Source: Candidatus Deferrimicrobiaceae bacterium
Lineage (GTDB): Bacteria; Desulfobacterota; Deferrimicrobia; Deferrimicrobiales; Deferrimicrobiaceae
Direction: 5' to 3'
DNA length: 64,000 nt
NCBI GenBank assembly: GCA_963792415.1
Contig: CAWBVY010000004.1
Coordinates: 128,001-192,000, forward strand
Each line of letters opens with the position of its first letter. Within the stretch, counting starts at the first letter, position 1. A program made the translations under genes and the position numbers. Shown here piece by piece: positions 53,183 through 59,086 of the stretch. The notes beneath the pieces were generated by a model that was not told the origin of the DNA, ran no database searches, and saw nothing but the letters and a program-made list of their open reading frames with translations.

Positions 53183-53201
53183 TCGGCCCCTACGGGGCCG
53201 A
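53183..53201 (-). promoter_or_regulatory. Putative SECIS element of arsS (spans the true TAG stop)
   Basis: TCGGCCCC-GTA-GGGGCCGA, 12 nt after the UGA. Confidence 0.75.
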
Positions 53202-54206
53202 TATCGCTCCGCCTCAAGTGAAGCCGGATCCCGCCGTGCAGGCGTAACAGTACTCCCCGATCGCGATCGCGGCGCCGGGCGGAGGAAGTTCGTGCACCTC
53301 CGAGACGTGGACCTTCCGGTCTCCGTGGGGCCGTCCGACGGCCAGGTTGAAATCGCAATCGTACAGGAACCCGTCCCAGGATACGGAGAGGAGCGTTCGG
53401 CACATGAGCCGTTCCACCGCGGAGGGGTTGAAGCCATCCGCGAGCGTTTTCAGATACCGTTCGTGATTTCCCGTCCGCTGCAGCCACGTCCGGAAACGCC
53501 CAAGCGGTACGTTCGCGAACGTGTACAGGCGGTTGAACGCGATCCCCCATTTCCGGAGGAGGTCGGCCCGGAATTTCCGCTCGGCGGTCTCCTGGGAAAC
53601 GGGAAGGAACGCCCCGACAGGGTTGGAGACGAGGTCCAGCTCCAGTCCGGTCCCCTCCATTCCATATCCCGCGGCGTTCAACCTCTTCAGCGCGGCGATC
53701 GCGGCTTCCGTCACCCCCGCGCCACGCTGGGCATCGCCTTGGGACGGATTCGTCGAGGGGAAGGAGGCGACCAGGACGACGCGGTGGGCGGCGCAGAGCG
53801 CGAGAAGAGACTCTCTCCCGGCGCCGTTCAATGCGGAAAGGTTCGTCCGAAGCATCAGGCGGGGCGCAAGCGGGGCGAGTCCTTCGACGAGAAAAGGAAG
53901 GTCGGGCACCAGTTCCGGCGCTCCGCCGGTGATATCGATCGCCTGGAACGGGAACCGCCGGGCGAACGAGACGACCGCCGCCATCGTCTCCCGGGACATG
54001 ACCTCTTCCCTGTCCGGACCGGCCTCGAGGTGGCAATGCCGGCACCGGAGATTGCACAGGTACCCCGTGCTCACCTGGAGGGTATGGACGCGGTCCCGCC
54101 CGAGGGAGACTCCATGACGCGCGAGGGCGTCGGCGAACGGCTCGACCTCGGACGCCTCCCGGACGCCGGTCCCGATCCCCGTCGACATTTCCCCGATCCT
54201 CGCCAC
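53190..54206 (-). CDS. arsS: ArsS-like radical SAM selenoprotein (Sec at TGA 53214-53216)
   Basis: CNLRCRHCH, DITGGAPEL, LMCRTLLSVSWDGFLYDCDFN, C-terminal CYACTAGSGFT-U-GGAISAP. Confidence 0.88.
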
Positions 54207-54238: not shown

Positions 54239-54571
54239 CTACATGGAAAGCTTTTCGGCGATCTTCCGCATCTGCACCCCGTGCACGAGGGATGCGCCGC
54301 CGCGGATCGCCGCCGCCACGTGAACCGCCTCGGTCATCTCGGCCAGGTTCGACCCTTTCTCGAGAGACGCCCGGGTGTACGCGTCGATGCAGTAGGGACA
54401 CTGGACCGCGTGCGCCACCGCGAGGGCGATCAGCGCCTTCTCCCGCTCCGTGAGTTCCCCCTCCTTGAAGACTTCGTCGTAGTAGTCGAAGAACTTCTTC
54501 GCGAGTTCCGGAGCGTCCTTACCGATATCGCCGAACGCGGCGAGACCGGCGGGATCGTAATACGTCTCCAT
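54239..54571 (-). CDS. ArsS-associated peroxidase-like (AhpD/CMD) protein
   Basis: METYYDP, REKALIALAVAHAVQCPYCIDAY, IRGGASLVHGVQM. Confidence 0.92.
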   Translation of the reverse strand: METYYDPAGLAAFGDIGKDAPELAKKFFDYYDEVFKEGELTEREKALIALAVAHAVQCPYCIDAYTRASLEKGSNLAEMTEAVHVAAAIRGGASLVHGVQMRKIAEKLSM

Positions 54572-54647: not shown

Positions 54648-55643
54648 TCAGCCCGCCGGACAGGCCGCCCCGATGCTTTCCCCTTTCTTTTCCCCGGCCG
54701 TGCACAGGATGTCCTCGAGGCGCTTCCTTCCGGCGGGAGACAACCCCAGTCCGTCGAGCTCCCGCCGAAGGGAGTCGCACGTCCCGTTTCCGGCAACGTA
54801 CCCATTGACGCGGGTGACGGCGGTGGAGGCGAGGAAATCGCGGAACGACGGGTACATCGCCTCGTACTCCTTCATCAGTTCCGACCGGCCCCGGAGCATA
54901 TACTTCTGGTGATACTCCTCGGCCAGGTAGAACCTGGTGGCCGGCCGGATCTCCGTGTAGATCCTTCCCTTCCTCCGGGAGGCCTCGCGGCTCCTGGTCT
55001 CGATCGCCACGGTTTTCTGTTCAACGCCATGGGTAAAGATCGCGGACATGTACTGCCGCCTCCACGGACGTTCCCGCGGGTCATGGCTTGCCCAGAAGAC
55101 GTCGAGCAATGTCCCGTAGGAGATCACGGACGGATCGAAGTCGACCTCGACCGTCTCGATATGGTCCCCGAGGTTCTGATACGTGGGGTTCTCCGTCGAC
55201 CCCCCCGTGTATCCGACGCGGGTGCGGAGAACGCCGGCGAGACTCCCGAACCGGGAGTCGGGACCCCAGAATCAGCCCAGGGCGAAGGTCGCCGTCTCCG
55301 TGACTTTGGGCGGGGATGCATCGATCGGCGGCGTTGCCGTCCCCCGATAGGTTCCCGCCCGTGTCAGCGCTTCCACCATCTTTGCCACCGTGATCTCCGC
55401 GGGGTAGAAGGTAACCGTGTTGATCTCCCTCGGGCCGCGGAAGCCTTTCTCGACTTTTTTCACGCCGTGCAGCCCCTCCAGGGCCGCTTTCCCCACGTCG
55501 TATCAGGCCACGTAGAACGTGACCGTGGAGGTTCCCTTCCCTTGGGATGGCGGGTCGTCGGCCCCCCATGATGCCGATAAGGAGAAAAGGACAAGGAGCA
55601 GGAAGAACGGCAGGATGCGTCGAAATTTCGCTGATGAATCCAT
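54648..55643 (-). CDS. msrA: Secreted two-Sec protein: mini-MsrA-like domain (Sec47) fused to Sec-MsrA (Sec124), 331 aa
   Basis: One continuous frame through TGA 55503-55505 and TGA 55272-55274; G-U-FWG, TRVGYTGG, FYLAEEYHQKY; signal peptide. Confidence 0.87.
55241..55259 (-). promoter_or_regulatory. Putative SECIS element (MsrA Sec)
   Basis: GACTCCCG-GTT-CGGGAGTC, 12 nt after the UGA. Confidence 0.8.
55469..55487 (-). promoter_or_regulatory. Putative SECIS element (N-terminal domain Sec)
   Basis: GCGGCCCT-GGA-GGGGCTGC (2 GU pairs), 15 nt after the UGA. Confidence 0.65.
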
Positions 55644-55687
55644 CGGCACTCCCTCCGCGGCACATGGCCGTTTTCTCATGCACATTT

Positions 55688-55743: not shown

Positions 55744-56394
55744 TCACCCGCCCGCGATTTTCCGGATCGCGGCCACGATCTCCGCCGGCTCCATGCGCAC
55801 GGTGTAGTCCGGGTCCGCCTCCCCCGCCCGGACGATGCCGTCCCTGTCCAGAACGTAGGTCGCCGGAACGGGAAGCTCCCACCGGCCCGCGCCGTTGTAC
55901 TTCTCAAGATTGACCCCGAACTTCTCCAGGTACAACGTCTTGACCTCCCCGGGCACGGCGTACCAGAGGCGATACTTCTTGAGCGTCTCGCTCGTCGCGT
56001 CGCTGAGGATGTCGATGGGGATCGCGTGCTTCTCCGCCATCGTCAGCGTGTTGTCGGGAAGTTCCGGGCTGATACCCACCAGGTCCGCGCCGAGCGACCG
56101 GATCGTCTGCAATTCCTTCGCCAGAGCTGCCAGCTCCAGGTTGCAGTACGGTCACCAGACCCCGCGGTAGAAGTTGAGTACCACCGGGCCCCGGGACAAC
56201 CGTTCCGAAAGCCTCACCGTCTCGCCCCGCTGGTTCGGCAGGGCGAAGTCCGGCGCGCGCTCCCCGATCCGCAGTCCGGCGGCTCCCGATTCCCTCGTGG
56301 AGTCGATCCCCCGGCGGAGGATCGCCACGACCTCCGGCGGCCGGTTCCGGGACGCGTCGAATTCCGCAAGCTCCTTCTTCAGCGACATCTCCAT
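55744..56394 (-). CDS. Peroxiredoxin-like (AhpC/TSA family) selenoprotein, UxxC (TGA 56152-56154)
   Basis: APDFALPN..FYRGVW-U-PYCNLEL..LPVPATYV..DYTVRMEP in one frame. Confidence 0.93.
56121..56139 (-). promoter_or_regulatory. Putative SECIS element (Prx-like)
   Basis: CTGGAGCT-GGC-AGCTCTGG, 12 nt after the UGA; possible lower stem CTGCAA/TTGCAG. Confidence 0.75.
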
Positions 56395-56903: not shown

Positions 56904-57614
56904 TCATTCCAGACTCCCGTTGGAAGAGAGGGGTTTCACCTTCCGGCGGTTCTTCACGGCGTTGAGAATCGTGGGCAGGAGGGCGAACAGCCCCAGCAGG
57001 GCGAACGACCCCAGAACCCGCGGGCTTGCCACCTGGCGCACGGTTTCAATGGCCGCGAGGCTCGCCCCCGCGTTCACGAAGACCAGGCTCCCCGGCATGA
57101 TCCCGAACAGCGTCCCCAGGGCGTAGGTCCGAAGCGGCAATCCCGTGACACCGCACGCCAGGTTGACCAGGAAGAACGGGAACGCCGGGACCAGCCGCAG
57201 GAAGAGGAGGTAGGAGAGCCCGTTCTCCCGCAACCCCCGGTCGATCCCCTCCATCCGCCCGCCGAACTTCCTCACCACCCAGTCCCGCAGCAGCGTGCGG
57301 CTGACGAGGAAAGCGAGGATGGCCCCGACGGTGGCGCCCGACACCACGAACAGCGTCCCCTGGAGAACGCCGAAAATCGCTCCGGCGGCGAGAGACAGGA
57401 TGGCCGCCCCCGGGAGGGAGAACGCGGTCTGGACGATGTAGAGCAGAACGAAGACGGCGGCGAACAGAACGGCGTGCGCGGCGCGCAGATCCGAAAGGCG
57501 CGCCTTGTTCGCCTTCAGGCTTTCCAGCGTCAGGTACTTCCCAAGGTCGAGGAAGTAGAACGCGGCCACGACCCCCGCGAATACGAGGAGGATCAGGATC
57601 TTCCGGGTCTTCAT
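56904..57614 (-). CDS. TVP38/TMEM64 (DedA/VTT) membrane protein
   Basis: SLPGA, YLLFLRLVPAFPFFLVN, VFVNAG. Confidence 0.93.
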   Translation of the reverse strand: MKTRKILILLVFAGVVAAFYFLDLGKYLTLESLKANKARLSDLRAAHAVLFAAVFVLLYIVQTAFSLPGAAILSLAAGAIFGVLQGTLFVVSGATVGAILAFLVSRTLLRDWVVRKFGGRMEGIDRGLRENGLSYLLFLRLVPAFPFFLVNLACGVTGLPLRTYALGTLFGIMPGSLVFVNAGASLAAIETVRQVASPRVLGSFALLGLFALLPTILNAVKNRRKVKPLSSNGSLE

Positions 57615-59086
57615 CCGGACACCTCTTCCTCCGGCGTGCACGCCCTCCCCTTCAGGTCGAAGAGGAATCGCAGGATCTTCTTCGTCCGGTCGCCGAACAG
57701 CTTCTCGGAGTAGTACGACCCGGCGGCCTTCTTCGAGATCTCCGCGAGCGTCGGGTAGGCGTGGATCGCCCCGGCCATGGTGGAGAGCTTCACCCCGCCG
57801 TTGATCGCGGCGACCCATTCGTGGATCAGTTCGCCGGCATGGGGCCCGGCGATCTGGCAGCCAAGGAGCGCCCCGGACGGGCTGATCAGCACCTTGATCT
57901 TTCCTTCGGTCTCCCCTTCGGCGAGGGCGCGATCCACGTCGCGAAACGCCGCCTCGAGGATCCGGTATTCCACTCCCGCCGCCTTCGCCCGCTTCTCGTT
58001 CAGCCCCACGCTCGCCACCTCGGGATCGGTGTACGTGCACCACGGGACCTTCGCGTAGTCCGCTTTCCTCGGCAACCGGAGCACCGCGTTCGACAGGGCG
58101 ATCCCCGCCTCGTACCCCGCCACGTGGGTGAACGGGAAGACGCCGTTCACGTCGCCGCACGAATAGATGTGCGGAACGTTCGTCCGCATCCGCCGGTCGG
58201 CCGGAACCCCTCGCGGAGAGAACCCGACGCCCGCCGCGGACAACTCCAGCCCCTCGACGTTCGGTTTCCGTCCGGCCGCCACGAGAAGGACATCCCCTTC
58301 GACTGTCCACGCCTCCCCTTCTCCCTTCGCGGGCCCCACCCGCAGTTGCACCGACCCGTTCCCCATGGTCGCCTTGAGGGCTTTCGTGCCGGTGAGGACC
58401 TTCACCCCTTCCGCTTCGAGCCGGTTTCTCAGGATCAAGGCGATGTCCGGGTCCTCGGGACCCAGAACCTGGTCCCCGTATTCGATGAGGGTGACTCCCG
58501 ACCCGAGACGCCGGAACGCCTGCGCCATCTCCACACCGATCGGCCCGCCGCCGAGGATCAGCAGGTGTCCCGGCAGCTCCGTCTGGGAGAAGACCGTCTC
58601 GTTCGTCCAGTACGGGACGTCGGCGATCCCTTCCACGGGCGGCAGGGACGGGCTCGAGCCGGTGGCGATGATCCACGCCCTCGCAGTGAGGCGCGCCCCG
58701 TCGAGGTCGACCGTATGGTCGTCGACGAAGCGCGGGGATCCGAACCGGACTTCCGCGCCGAGCTTGCAGAACCGCTCCGGCGAGTCGTGCTCCTGGATCG
58801 TGTCGATCACCGAGCGGACCCGGCCCATGACGGCGGCGAGGGAGACCGGCGGGAGCGCCACCTCCGGAAGCCCGAACTCCTTCGCGCGGCGGGCGAGGGA
58901 CCAGACCCCGGCCGTCCGGATCAATGTCTTCGATGGGACGCACCCGAAGTGGAGGCAGTCTCCTCCGAGTTTTTTCGCCTTTTCGACGAGGATCGTCTTC
59001 GCGCCGAACTGGGCCGAACCTGCCGCCGCCGTCAACCCTGCCGCTCCCCCTCCAAGGATCCCAAGATCGTAATCAAACGCCGCCAT
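57611..59086 (-). CDS. Pyridine nucleotide-disulfide oxidoreductase (MerA/Lpd-like)
   Basis: GGGAAG, GGDCLHFGCVPSK, GGGPIGVE, HAYPT; no MerA C-terminal CC pair. Confidence 0.92.
   Translation of the reverse strand: MAAFDYDLGILGGGAAGLTAAAGSAQFGAKTILVEKAKKLGGDCLHFGCVPSKTLIRTAGVWSLARRAKEFGLPEVALPPVSLAAVMGRVRSVIDTIQEHDSPERFCKLGAEVRFGSPRFVDDHTVDLDGARLTARAWIIATGSSPSLPPVEGIADVPYWTNETVFSQTELPGHLLILGGGPIGVEMAQAFRRLGSGVTLIEYGDQVLGPEDPDIALILRNRLEAEGVKVLTGTKALKATMGNGSVQLRVGPAKGEGEAWTVEGDVLLVAAGRKPNVEGLELSAAGVGFSPRGVPADRRMRTNVPHIYSCGDVNGVFPFTHVAGYEAGIALSNAVLRLPRKADYAKVPWCTYTDPEVASVGLNEKRAKAAGVEYRILEAAFRDVDRALAEGETEGKIKVLISPSGALLGCQIAGPHAGELIHEWVAAINGGVKLSTMAGAIHAYPTLAEISKKAAGSYYSEKLFGDRTKKILRFLFDLKGRACTPEEEVSG

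Follow-up and report, generated by a model that had tools for sequence, protein, structure and literature searches.

A predicted exported protein with two selenocysteines in a Deferrimicrobiaceae genome and the unnamed single-selenocysteine domain family that accompanies methionine sulfoxide reductases

Introduction

The closest described relative of the enzyme considered here is the methionine sulfoxide reductase MsrA of Clostridium oremlandii. According to the available sections of the report on it, this enzyme natively contains selenocysteine (Sec), belongs to the "1-Cys type" without a resolving Cys, and is built from a catalytic domain (positions 1-144) together with a separate helical domain (positions 145-209); it is reduced by glutaredoxin, not by thioredoxin, two of its molecules can become bonded to each other through their catalytic residues, and its substrate-bound structure is 4LWM (PMC4479559). 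In the accessible part of a 2026 inventory of 119 selenoprotein families, MsrA appears with a single Sec (PMC13188914). Here a gene is described that lies on the minus strand, at 54648..55643, of a 64,000-nucleotide (nt) stretch of a Candidatus Deferrimicrobiaceae genome (assembly GCA_963792415.1, contig CAWBVY010000004.1, positions 128,001 to 192,000), the whole of which is called the window. Its predicted product carries two Sec in one exported chain: Sec47, in an N-terminal domain of about 65 residues that is called dom1, and Sec124, at the active site of an MsrA of the C. oremlandii type.

The likeness to the C. oremlandii enzyme lies in the GUFWG Sec site, in a catalytic domain without a resolving Cys, and in the alignment of residues 115-302 to the chain 4lwj over both the catalytic and the helical domain. 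The window protein differs in being exported (by prediction), in having an extra Sec domain in front and a Cys-bearing tail behind, and in that its reductant cannot be a cytoplasmic glutaredoxin. While the Sec-MsrA part is of a known kind, three things are rated as new: a family of Sec/Cys proteins whose fold is itself known, its partnership in the genomes, and the natural fusion that brings two Sec together. The best explanation overall, to which about an even chance is given, is that of an exported two-Sec protein whose dom1 family acts as an accessory of methionine sulfoxide reductases (Msr) by means of a selenolate relay.

One reading frame through two TGA codons

When TGA is read as Sec (U), the minus-strand frame 55643..54648 runs through 331 residues without TAA or TAG, while translation table 11 cuts it into three open reading frame fragments. 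The parts of the gene are the following, in window coordinates.

54648..55643 (-): full coding region of 331 codons, closed by a TGA stop; predicted secreted dom1-MsrA protein with two Sec, translated with TGA as U
55652..55656 (-): ribosome-binding site (GGAGG) that precedes the ATG by 8 nt, read from the sequence
55563..55643 (-): predicted signal peptide of the Sec (secretory) type, residues 1-27 (MDSSAKFRRILPFFLLLVLFSLSASWG), by inspection
55335..55532 (-): dom1, residues 38-103, motif TFYVA-U-YDVGKAALEGL; single-Sec domain of MerP/HMA-like fold (AlphaFold2, Foldseek)
55503..55505 (-): TGA for Sec47 (UGA1), also TGA in 79 of 80 genome relatives
55469..55487 (-): hairpin 1 (GCGGCCC-UGGAG-GGGCUGC), resembling a selenocysteine insertion sequence (SECIS), starting 15 nt after UGA1, by comparative pairing
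55305..55334 (-): linker, residues 104-113 (TPPIDASPPK), conserved in fused forms
54888..55295 (-): catalytic domain of MsrA (residues 117-252), containing the active site GUFWG (Pfam PMSR, TIGR00401)
55272..55274 (-): TGA for the catalytic Sec124 (UGA2), aligned on the MsrA catalytic Cys
55241..55259 (-): SECIS-like hairpin 2 (GACUCCCG-GUU-CGGGAGUC), starting 12 nt after UGA2
54738..54887 (-): putative helical domain (residues 253-302) of the type found in C. oremlandii MsrA (phmmer against PDB)
54651..54737 (-): C-terminal tail, residues 303-331, containing Cys317 (ILCTAG) and Cys328 (AACPAG)

The terminal TGA (54650-54648, minus strand) is a real stop, because the extension past it is not conserved among relatives. 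The frame and both Sec TGAs are common to five species of the genus; the full-length frame with its two TGAs is kept in the genomes G011, G012 and G018 (81-85% identity) and in G055 (locus L038). At the N-terminus a basic stretch is followed by a hydrophobic one and then by SAS (by inspection, with no predictor), and the homologs likewise retain a basic stretch and then a hydrophobic N-terminus. The assembly (2.84 Mb in 11 contigs, 60-67% G+C, 100% complete by marker genes) contains a tRNA-Sec gene and SelB, the latter at 324 bits against a cut-off of 242. The 331-residue frame is almost certainly one real exported protein with two Sec. A first-pass annotation made from the sequence had proposed just such a secreted protein, and the single frame through both TGAs, its conservation in the genus and the signal peptide seen by inspection bear it out. 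The same annotation had raised the objection that MsrA might be translated from an internal start only. This is spoken against by the fused form, in which MsrA has no second signal peptide, and by the split forms of G020 and G021, which provide MsrA with a hydrophobic N-terminus of its own. Conservation among the homologs extends to the part that lies ahead of the first TGA.

On sequence comparison, residues 114-331 are a Sec-MsrA of the C. oremlandii type, a known kind, and a predicted methionine sulfoxide reductase. Pfam PMSR (PF01625) covers residues 117-252 with 144.7 bits (cut-off 23.7, E 3.5e-42), and TIGR00401 matches with 128.2 bits against a cut-off of 108.1. The GUFWG site occupies residues 123-127 and has been found in 14 distinct relatives; all 27 MsrA sequences of an alignment share G9, C10, F11 and W12. 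Among solved chains the nearest are 4lwj, 4u66 and 4lwm (phmmer against PDB, E 3.5e-58), query residues 3-188 of the MsrA part aligning to 4lwj residues 9-194 with the helical part included; 4lwj and 4u66 are taken as C. oremlandii MsrA through their sibling 4LWM, which is named in the available text of PMC4479559. The helical domain model PF20939 gives 21.4 bits, below its cut-off of 23.7. A further Cys, Cys295 (GNGTCDSL), lies just upstream of the tail within the putative helical domain, and the C. oremlandii enzyme has no Cys at the aligned position. The near-C-terminal ACP Cys is retained in G010 (L019), where the other two Cys of the tail region are lost.

Spread of the dom1 family and the residue at the Sec site

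A search of its own genome with dom1 returned only the locus itself and no paralogue. Within the class, profile matches were obtained in 24 of 77 genomes; 22 of the 26 matching rows contain a TGA, and the remainder consists of two weak matches and of two partial ones that begin past the Sec site. A sample of 401 genomes of the phylum gave matches in 23, including a Cys form (L066) and a Ser form (L067). A scan of one genome per GTDB species detected 147 dom1 relatives among 167 candidate stretches, and the best 80 of these 147 are the Sec (genome) loci referred to below. The Sec site is TGA in 79 of them, the 80th being interrupted by a contig end, and the flanks of this TGA are invariant among homologs, the motif of dom1 being TFYVxUYDVGKAALEGL. 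The titles of the loci name Deferrimicrobiaceae, Desulfobacterales, Desulfobacteraceae, Syntrophales, Syntrophobacterales and Nitrospirota/Thermodesulfovibrionales, as well as Dissulfurispiraceae, SAR324, Myxococcota and, among the symbionts of Olavius, Delta 1 and Delta 3.

A profile search of 1.84 billion representative proteins retrieved 262 at E <= 1e-3, of which 110 at E <= 1e-10, and site residues were tallied in the 148 that could be aligned of the best 150. The Sec site is covered by 77 of the 148, with Cys in 47, Trp in 26, and Ser, Val, Gly and Arg in one each; the other 71 start after it, as commonly happens when selenoprotein genes are called automatically. A locus match was found for 24 of the 26 Trp proteins, none identical to a locus, and among the 17 for which the nearest-locus codon could be resolved it is TGA in 16 and TGC in one. 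The Trp forms probably represent TGA translated by a gene caller of the code-4 type. The expectation that homologs would have TGA or Cys at position 47 has thus been borne out by 79 of the 80 loci and by 47 of the representative proteins, respectively.

On this evidence dom1 is a widespread, so far unnamed, predicted Sec/Cys protein family, mostly stand-alone. It reaches no Pfam or NCBIfam model cut-off, and its nearest ESM Atlas clusters are labelled "hypothetical protein" and have no common Pfam family. It is absent from the 87-row table of a 2022 review (PMC9312934) and from the 119-family table of the 2026 review (PMC13188914), as far as these sources were available; in the accessible part of the latter, the families of the Olavius symbiont (PMC1976440) are mapped to models that dom1 does not reach. 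The available portions of PMC9312934, PMC13188914, PMC1976440, PMC12013277 and PMC4479559 name no HMA-like single-Sec protein linked to Msr, and a term search of the accessible text of PMC13326102 gave no match for such a protein. The view that dom1 was undescribed agrees with these Pfam, NCBIfam and review-table results, within the parts of the reviews covered, and an earlier mention under another name is possible. If confirmed, the family would be a widespread addition to the selenoprotein inventory, with 262 representative clusters at E <= 1e-3. It is systematically mis-annotated, because gene callers truncate its genes or read TGA as Trp.

Hairpins downstream of the two TGAs

Folding recovered a hairpin downstream of each TGA, as the first-pass annotation had reported; the RNAfold version of hairpin 1 is an 8-bp stem that starts 18 nt after UGA1. 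Taken singly, hairpins 1 and 2 fold no better than shuffled sequence in this DNA of 66% G+C (z -1.51 and +0.36, respectively). The support for them rests on relatives for this reason. A scan with Rfam of 10 kb around the gene gave no SECIS family at E <= 10, and two chance-level matches elsewhere.

Two sets of genes have been compared at hairpin 1: 86 distinct Sec genes, and 43 distinct Cys genes drawn from L066 and from 49 metagenome loci, the latter found by a pattern with Cys at the site. The seven pairs GCGGCCC/GGGCUGC are formed in 89.2% of cells in the Sec genes, against 26-52% after the 3' partner has been shifted by 1-3 columns. Three of the pairs change on both sides, with G-C replaced by U-A in 13 sequences, and the covariation score was reached by 0 of 500 shuffles. 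In the Cys genes the same columns are paired in only 40.9% of cells. The fourfold degenerate sites within the stem behave in the same way: column 24 (Ala GCC) has C in 84 of 86 Sec genes vs 33 of 43 Cys genes, column 27 (Leu CUG) has G in 86 of 86 vs 25 of 43, and column 33 (Gly GGG) has G in 81 of 86 vs 7 of 43, equivalent sites outside the stem being variable. Hairpin 1 goes with the TGA, and this is the strongest evidence that UGA1 would be decoded as Sec. As for hairpin 2, every one of the 14 distinct Sec-MsrA sequences collected, the distant L020 among them, has its core CCCGGUUCGGG.

Fold of dom1 and its relation to HMA and MsrA

The dom1 sequence has no Pfam match at E <= 10. Ten Cys forms of the family gave only sub-threshold Pfam matches, to PMSR (E 0.024-0.13) and to HMA (PF00403; E 0.094), the best HMA score being 13.6 bits against a cut-off of 24.8. 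The best NCBIfam match is NF041383, with up to 45.6 bits against a cut-off of 275 (dom1 alone 29.6 bits, positions 142-204), followed by NF041115 with up to 32 bits (E 1e-7) against 95. AlphaFold2, provided with a 60-sequence alignment, models dom1 with a pLDDT of 96.6 and a pTM of 0.85 as beta-alpha-beta-beta-alpha-beta (E-H-E-E-H-E), with the Sec between strand 1 and helix 1. The Sec/Cys would by analogy be placed just before helix 1, where the first metal-binding Cys of HMA domains and the catalytic Cys of MsrA lie.

Foldseek against PDB ranks MerP (1afi) at the top (E 2.8e-4, TM 0.77, 32% identity), then 1osd, likewise MerP, and many HMA chains at probability 1.00, and MsrA cores appear from rank 30 onwards (TMq 0.63-0.74); hmmsearch of PDB sequences with dom1 likewise finds MerP (E 0.0012). 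At the profile level, hhalign aligns dom1 to MsrA at 95.5% (E 1.5e-8, 55 columns), with the Sec on the catalytic Cys, and to the genome's own HMA domains at 94.4% (E 8.8e-8), over 44 columns in the domain body. In the 60 dom1 sequences nothing is invariant except the Sec/Cys and two Gly; F9, V11, D15, L21, G33, E39, V43, D46, L59 and T64 are nearly so. The CxxC pair of HMA domains (GMxCxxC, present as GMTCxxC in the genome's own) is absent, the dom1 motif being A-U-Y-D-V. The domain appears to stand between HMA and MsrA and is assigned to neither family, because it lacks the CxxC pair and scores below the cut-offs of both models. Its about equal similarity to metal-binding HMA domains and to the MsrA catalytic core gives dom1 an evolutionary interest of its own.

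These comparisons uphold the proposal that about 65 N-terminal residues form a genuine Sec domain, ferredoxin-like in its fold and akin to both HMA and MsrA (AlphaFold, Foldseek, hhalign), and the profile alignment confirms that it lacks the Trp and the NPTY...GH loop of the MsrA substrate pocket. The gapless alignment of dom1 to MsrA that had been claimed holds for the first 33 residues (BLASTP, 10 of 33 identical, E 0.003 for a single comparison, Sec on Sec); after these, the V.[YF]DP block is preceded in MsrA by an insertion of 17 columns, which is the NPTY...GH loop. Similarly, the description of dom1 as a degenerate mini-MsrA is right as to the likeness to MsrA (hhalign 95.5%), and this likeness is no better than that to a MerP-like HMA domain (hhalign 94.4%, TM 0.77).

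Among described families, MerP and the HMA domains (PF00403) share the fold of dom1 (TM 0.77 to 1afi), a periplasmic location with a signal peptide (predicted for dom1) and, by analogy, probably a reactive residue at the start of helix 1. They differ in that dom1 has one Sec/Cys instead of CxxC and no Pfam HMA match above cut-off, and in that its partners are Msr enzymes and not mer or cop genes. The UxxU metal-binding (seleno)protein of NF041115 is also a small HMA-like selenoprotein with a weak profile match; dom1 stays below its 95-bit cut-off and has one Sec and no UxxU. The VPGUxxT thioredoxin-like (seleno)protein type 2 of NF041383 (OS_HP5, from Olavius) resembles dom1 in its C-terminal half (about 138-207), which also matches ordinary MsrA genes. 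It differs in having a thioredoxin-like half and VPGU, both absent from dom1, a distinction made by profile and not by member sequences. TsoY (NF047643) was considered and rejected: its motif UxxV fits U-Y-D-V, but the model has 366 positions and gave no match in the genome.

Genomic partners of dom1

The dom1 domain is fused to Sec-MsrA in five species of the genus. In G020 and G021 the leader and dom1 are encoded separately, and a Sec-MsrA with its own hydrophobic N-terminus follows about 125 nt downstream; in G005 and G014 the same leader is joined straight to the linker and MsrA, the linker directly following the leader, and dom1 is cleanly absent. A second fusion occurs in two other genera of the same family (G082, locus L051; G059, locus L052), where an MsrB with a twin-arginine (Tat) signal (MRRADFLKLGLAAAG...) has a Sec dom1 fused C-terminally (locus positions about 1066-1710); in L052 a Sec-MsrA lies about 100 nt downstream of it. 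In G053 MsrB is followed by a separate dom1, and genus g16 has msrB-msrA(Cys)-dom1 operons. The position of dom1 relative to msrA and msrB was classified in the 80 Sec and the 49 Cys loci as follows.

80 Sec genome loci: MsrA fused or abutting (<=60 nt), 4; MsrB fused or abutting, 2; msrA/msrB on the same strand within 1.5 kb, 52; on the opposite strand, 3; none, 19 (2 of them near a contig end)
49 Cys metagenome loci: MsrA fused or abutting, 0; MsrB fused or abutting, 0; same strand within 1.5 kb, 32; opposite strand, 0; none, 17 (13 of them within 600 nt of a contig end)

A link to Msr, as a fusion or as an msrA or msrB gene on the same strand within 1.5 kb, is found in 58 of the 80 Sec loci and in 32 of the 49 Cys loci. 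The fusion to MsrA seen by the first-pass annotation in the window is confirmed; dom1 is not confined to it, being mostly stand-alone beside Cys-type msrA and msrB genes and also fused to MsrB. The Cys-type MsrA genes beside dom1 have GCFWC in 46 loci of the Sec set and in 21 of the Cys set. In the neighbouring MsrB genes the residue at the G-x-GWPSF position is Thr in 52 of 52 cases and Thr or Ser in 16 of 16, and never Cys; this position we take to be that of the resolving or recycling Cys in other MsrBs.

Other recurrent neighbours have been identified. A molybdenum oxidoreductase (PF00174) with a Tat signal adjoins dom1 in 8 of the 19 Sec loci without Msr and in 11 of the 80 overall. A sensor kinase of HAMP-HisKA-HATPase type is encoded in 43 of the 80 Sec loci and in 30 of the 49 Cys loci, YHS-domain proteins in 7 of the 80 Sec loci and a P-type ATPase in one. 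No thioredoxin-like or CcdA gene family is present among the recurrent neighbours of dom1.

The PF00174 enzymes beside dom1 are small (216-357 residues). They lie directly upstream in L099, L111, L129, L133, L143 and L156 and nearby in L096, L125 and L132; in two Nitrospirota loci (L124 and L142) one is found about 1.5 kb downstream, together with cytochrome b561 (PF01292) and a YHS protein.

Proposed function

From its fusions and its gene neighbourhood, dom1 is very probably an accessory of a periplasmic system of methionine sulfoxide repair. How it would act is a matter of lesser confidence. In the mechanism proposed here, Msr enzymes without a resolving Cys would have their oxidised catalytic residue attacked by the selenolate of dom1; this residue would be Sec124 as its selenenic acid or, in a 1-Cys MsrB, a sulfenic acid. 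The two partners would thereby become joined by an Se-Se or Se-S bond between molecules, to be resolved in turn by a further reductant, and the role of dom1 would be that of glutaredoxin for the cytoplasmic MsrA of C. oremlandii. Such a recycling function fits because the fused MsrA type needs an external nucleophile, and because the neighbouring MsrBs are devoid of Cys at G-x-GWPSF. For the direct selenol relay from dom1 to the Msr active site the chances are put a little short of even, and much the same holds for the view that dom1 represents a new class of periplasmic MerP-fold carriers of a single selenol or thiol that would regenerate Msr through intermolecular Se-Se or Se-S bonds.

The idea has precedents. 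In the PilB-type thioredoxin-MsrA-MsrB fusion a recycling module is likewise fused to Msr. A 2011 title by Kim and co-workers, "Tandem use of selenocysteine", reportedly concerns a selenoprotein glutaredoxin that reduces the Sec-MsrA of C. oremlandii, which by that title would be a Sec reductant for a Sec enzyme. Unlike these partners, dom1 has no thioredoxin fold and has a single redox residue, and it is a putative recycler. If the proposal were true, the extracytoplasmic protein repair of anaerobes would be recycled without thioredoxin or glutaredoxin, and the window protein would be the "tandem selenocysteine" form joined covalently, its Sec47 resolving the selenenic acid of Sec124 within the chain or across a dimer. 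The recycling of periplasmic Msr without a resolving Cys is an open question wherever no thioredoxin-like partner is encoded nearby; dom1 is a small and simple candidate partner, naturally fused to both MsrA and MsrB, with which this question becomes testable.

Several observations weigh against a relay. The domain has one redox residue, so that a relay would need a second thiol or selenol; the contact between Sec47 and Sec124 is itself a proposal. The MsrA neighbours with GCFWC may resolve internally, as Bacillus-type MsrA does, and would then call for a disulfide reductase instead of a resolving residue. The three C-terminal Cys of the window MsrA could act as resolving residues in their own right. 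The links to the molybdenum oxidoreductase, whose chemistry is not thiol-based, and to YHS proteins may fit a shared role in stress or metal handling at least as well, and the closest solved fold is that of a mercury-binding protein. Finally, DsbD/CcdA is not anticorrelated with dom1, since 19 of the 23 carriers in the class have PF02683.

Alternative explanations

It is highly improbable that translation really ends at the first TGA, or that this codon is an error of the assembly, with a short leader peptide upstream and MsrA made separately. Such a view can appeal to the folding of the single hairpins, neither of which alone beats shuffled sequence, and to the gene callers, which split the frame; yet the TGA and its flanks are kept in 79 of 80 relatives across several phyla, Cys homologs exist, hairpin 1 tracks the TGA, and the fused form has neither a signal peptide nor a start context between dom1 and MsrA. 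A different matter, compatible with the other readings, is the descent of dom1, which might be a truncated paralogue of the N-terminal half of MsrA and not derived from HMA. This is possible, if on balance rather doubtful. The hhalign match to MsrA is slightly above that to HMA and covers the strand-Sec-helix region, NF041383 (which also matches ordinary MsrA) was the top NCBIfam match of all ten Cys forms tested, Pfam PMSR gave a sub-threshold match in four of the ten, and in a full-length alignment MAFFT put the N-termini of Cys-type MsrA on dom1. On the other hand, MerP and about 25 other HMA chains outrank the first MsrA in Foldseek (rank 30), identity to MerP is 32% vs 19-22% to MsrA chains, and the topology is common to both families, convergence and common ancestry being indistinguishable here.

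Two functional alternatives to the relay are each considered unlikely. According to one of them, dom1 would be a periplasmic binder of soft metals or metalloids like MerP or CopZ, its ligands being Cu(I), Hg(II), Ag(I) or Se/As species; dom1 and Msr would be co-regulated by a CusS/HprS-like two-component system because metal and oxidant stress coincide, and the Sec would bind as a dimer or with a partner. MerP as the best solved match (Foldseek E 2.8e-4 with 32% identity, hmmsearch E 0.0012) is consistent with this, as are the weak NCBIfam matches to the UxxU metal-binding model, MerP and CopZ, the sensor kinases (43/80 Sec and 30/49 Cys loci), the YHS proteins (7/80) and single P-type ATPase, and the arsenosugar and peroxidase-type selenoprotein genes that adjoin in the window. 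A metal binder is harder to reconcile with the absence of a CxxC or UxxU pair, the motif U-Y-D-V having one invariant Sec/Cys in 60 sequences, with the absence of a Pfam HMA match above cut-off, and with the recurrent neighbours, which include no copper or mercury transporter family save the one ATPase; moreover, two independent covalent fusions to Msr are hard to explain through co-regulation alone. In the other alternative, dom1 would itself be catalytic or sacrificial, as a minimal Sec reductase, as a sensor of oxidants, or by scavenging sulfoxides, HOCl, chloramines or peroxides, using the Sec and the conserved Tyr, Asp and Glu around it and working beside MsrA, MsrB or the molybdenum enzyme without recycling them. 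The profile alignment to the active-site half of MsrA with the Sec on the catalytic Cys (95.5%) argues for it, and so do the residues D15, E39, F9, G17 and G26, invariant or nearly so around the Sec; the three unrelated periplasmic oxidoreductase classes near dom1 (MsrA, MsrB and PF00174) share a substrate or a stress, not a recycling chemistry. However, the Trp and the NPTY...GH loop of the MsrA substrate pocket are missing, and a catalyst with a single reactive residue would still require a reductant.

Neighbouring genes and minor observations

The genes around that of dom1-MsrA in the window and its vicinity include the following.

53190-54188 (-): ArsS, arsenosugar-biosynthesis radical SAM selenoprotein (TIGR04167, 363.5 bits against a cut-off of 300)
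54239-54571 (-): AhpD-like CxxC protein, scoring 196.6 bits (cut-off 120) with TIGR04169, "arsenosugar biosynthesis-associated peroxidase-like"
about 55744-56370 (-): peroxiredoxin-like selenoprotein, directly upstream of dom1-MsrA
56904-57620 (-): TVP38/DedA-type membrane protein, same gene string, family named by eye
57611-59086 (-): pyridine nucleotide-disulfide oxidoreductase with a CLHFGC redox centre, same gene string, family named by eye

The Sec TGA of ArsS lies at 53214-53216, in the C-terminal sequence ...CTAGSGFT-U-GGAISAP, and table 11 ends ArsS there; the TIGR04169 gene sits between those of ArsS and dom1-MsrA. In the peroxiredoxin-like protein the Sec TGA is at 56152-56154 (FYRGVW-U-PYC, a UxxC motif), and its NCBIfam matches are only sub-threshold. 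Four Sec codons are found in total in three genes that are here called adjacent, those of the peroxiredoxin-like protein, dom1-MsrA and ArsS. An msrB gene paired with a Cys-type msrA is located past the end of the window, about 9 kb from dom1-MsrA (G000:C4:192266-193169, plus strand).

In the genome, of which all but 72 kb was scanned, DsbD_TM (PF02683) has no match; in the class it matches in 50 of 77 genomes, among them the dom1 carriers mentioned above. The idea that dom1 replaces the DsbD/CcdA route was dropped, there being no anticorrelation across the class genomes.

Some loci of the wider set deserve separate mention. In L076 (G232) a degenerate dom1-like frame (...GA-U-YDPGKAALEGQ...), with a diverged second half, lies upstream of an msrA-msrB fusion and may be a decaying copy. 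The msrB-msrA-dom1 locus of L091 ("Candidatus Limnocylindria bacterium") is about 80% identical to Deferrimicrobiaceae loci and stands in a bin labelled Chloroflexota, which points to a binning error or a recent transfer. Relatives of the TVP38 and pyridine nucleotide-disulfide oxidoreductase pair have been detected by tblastn in 9 of the 80 dom1 loci (the oxidoreductase in 8, TVP38 in 8, both in 7), and in G020 the oxidoreductase gene lies directly upstream of dom1; this pair could be a source of reducing power.

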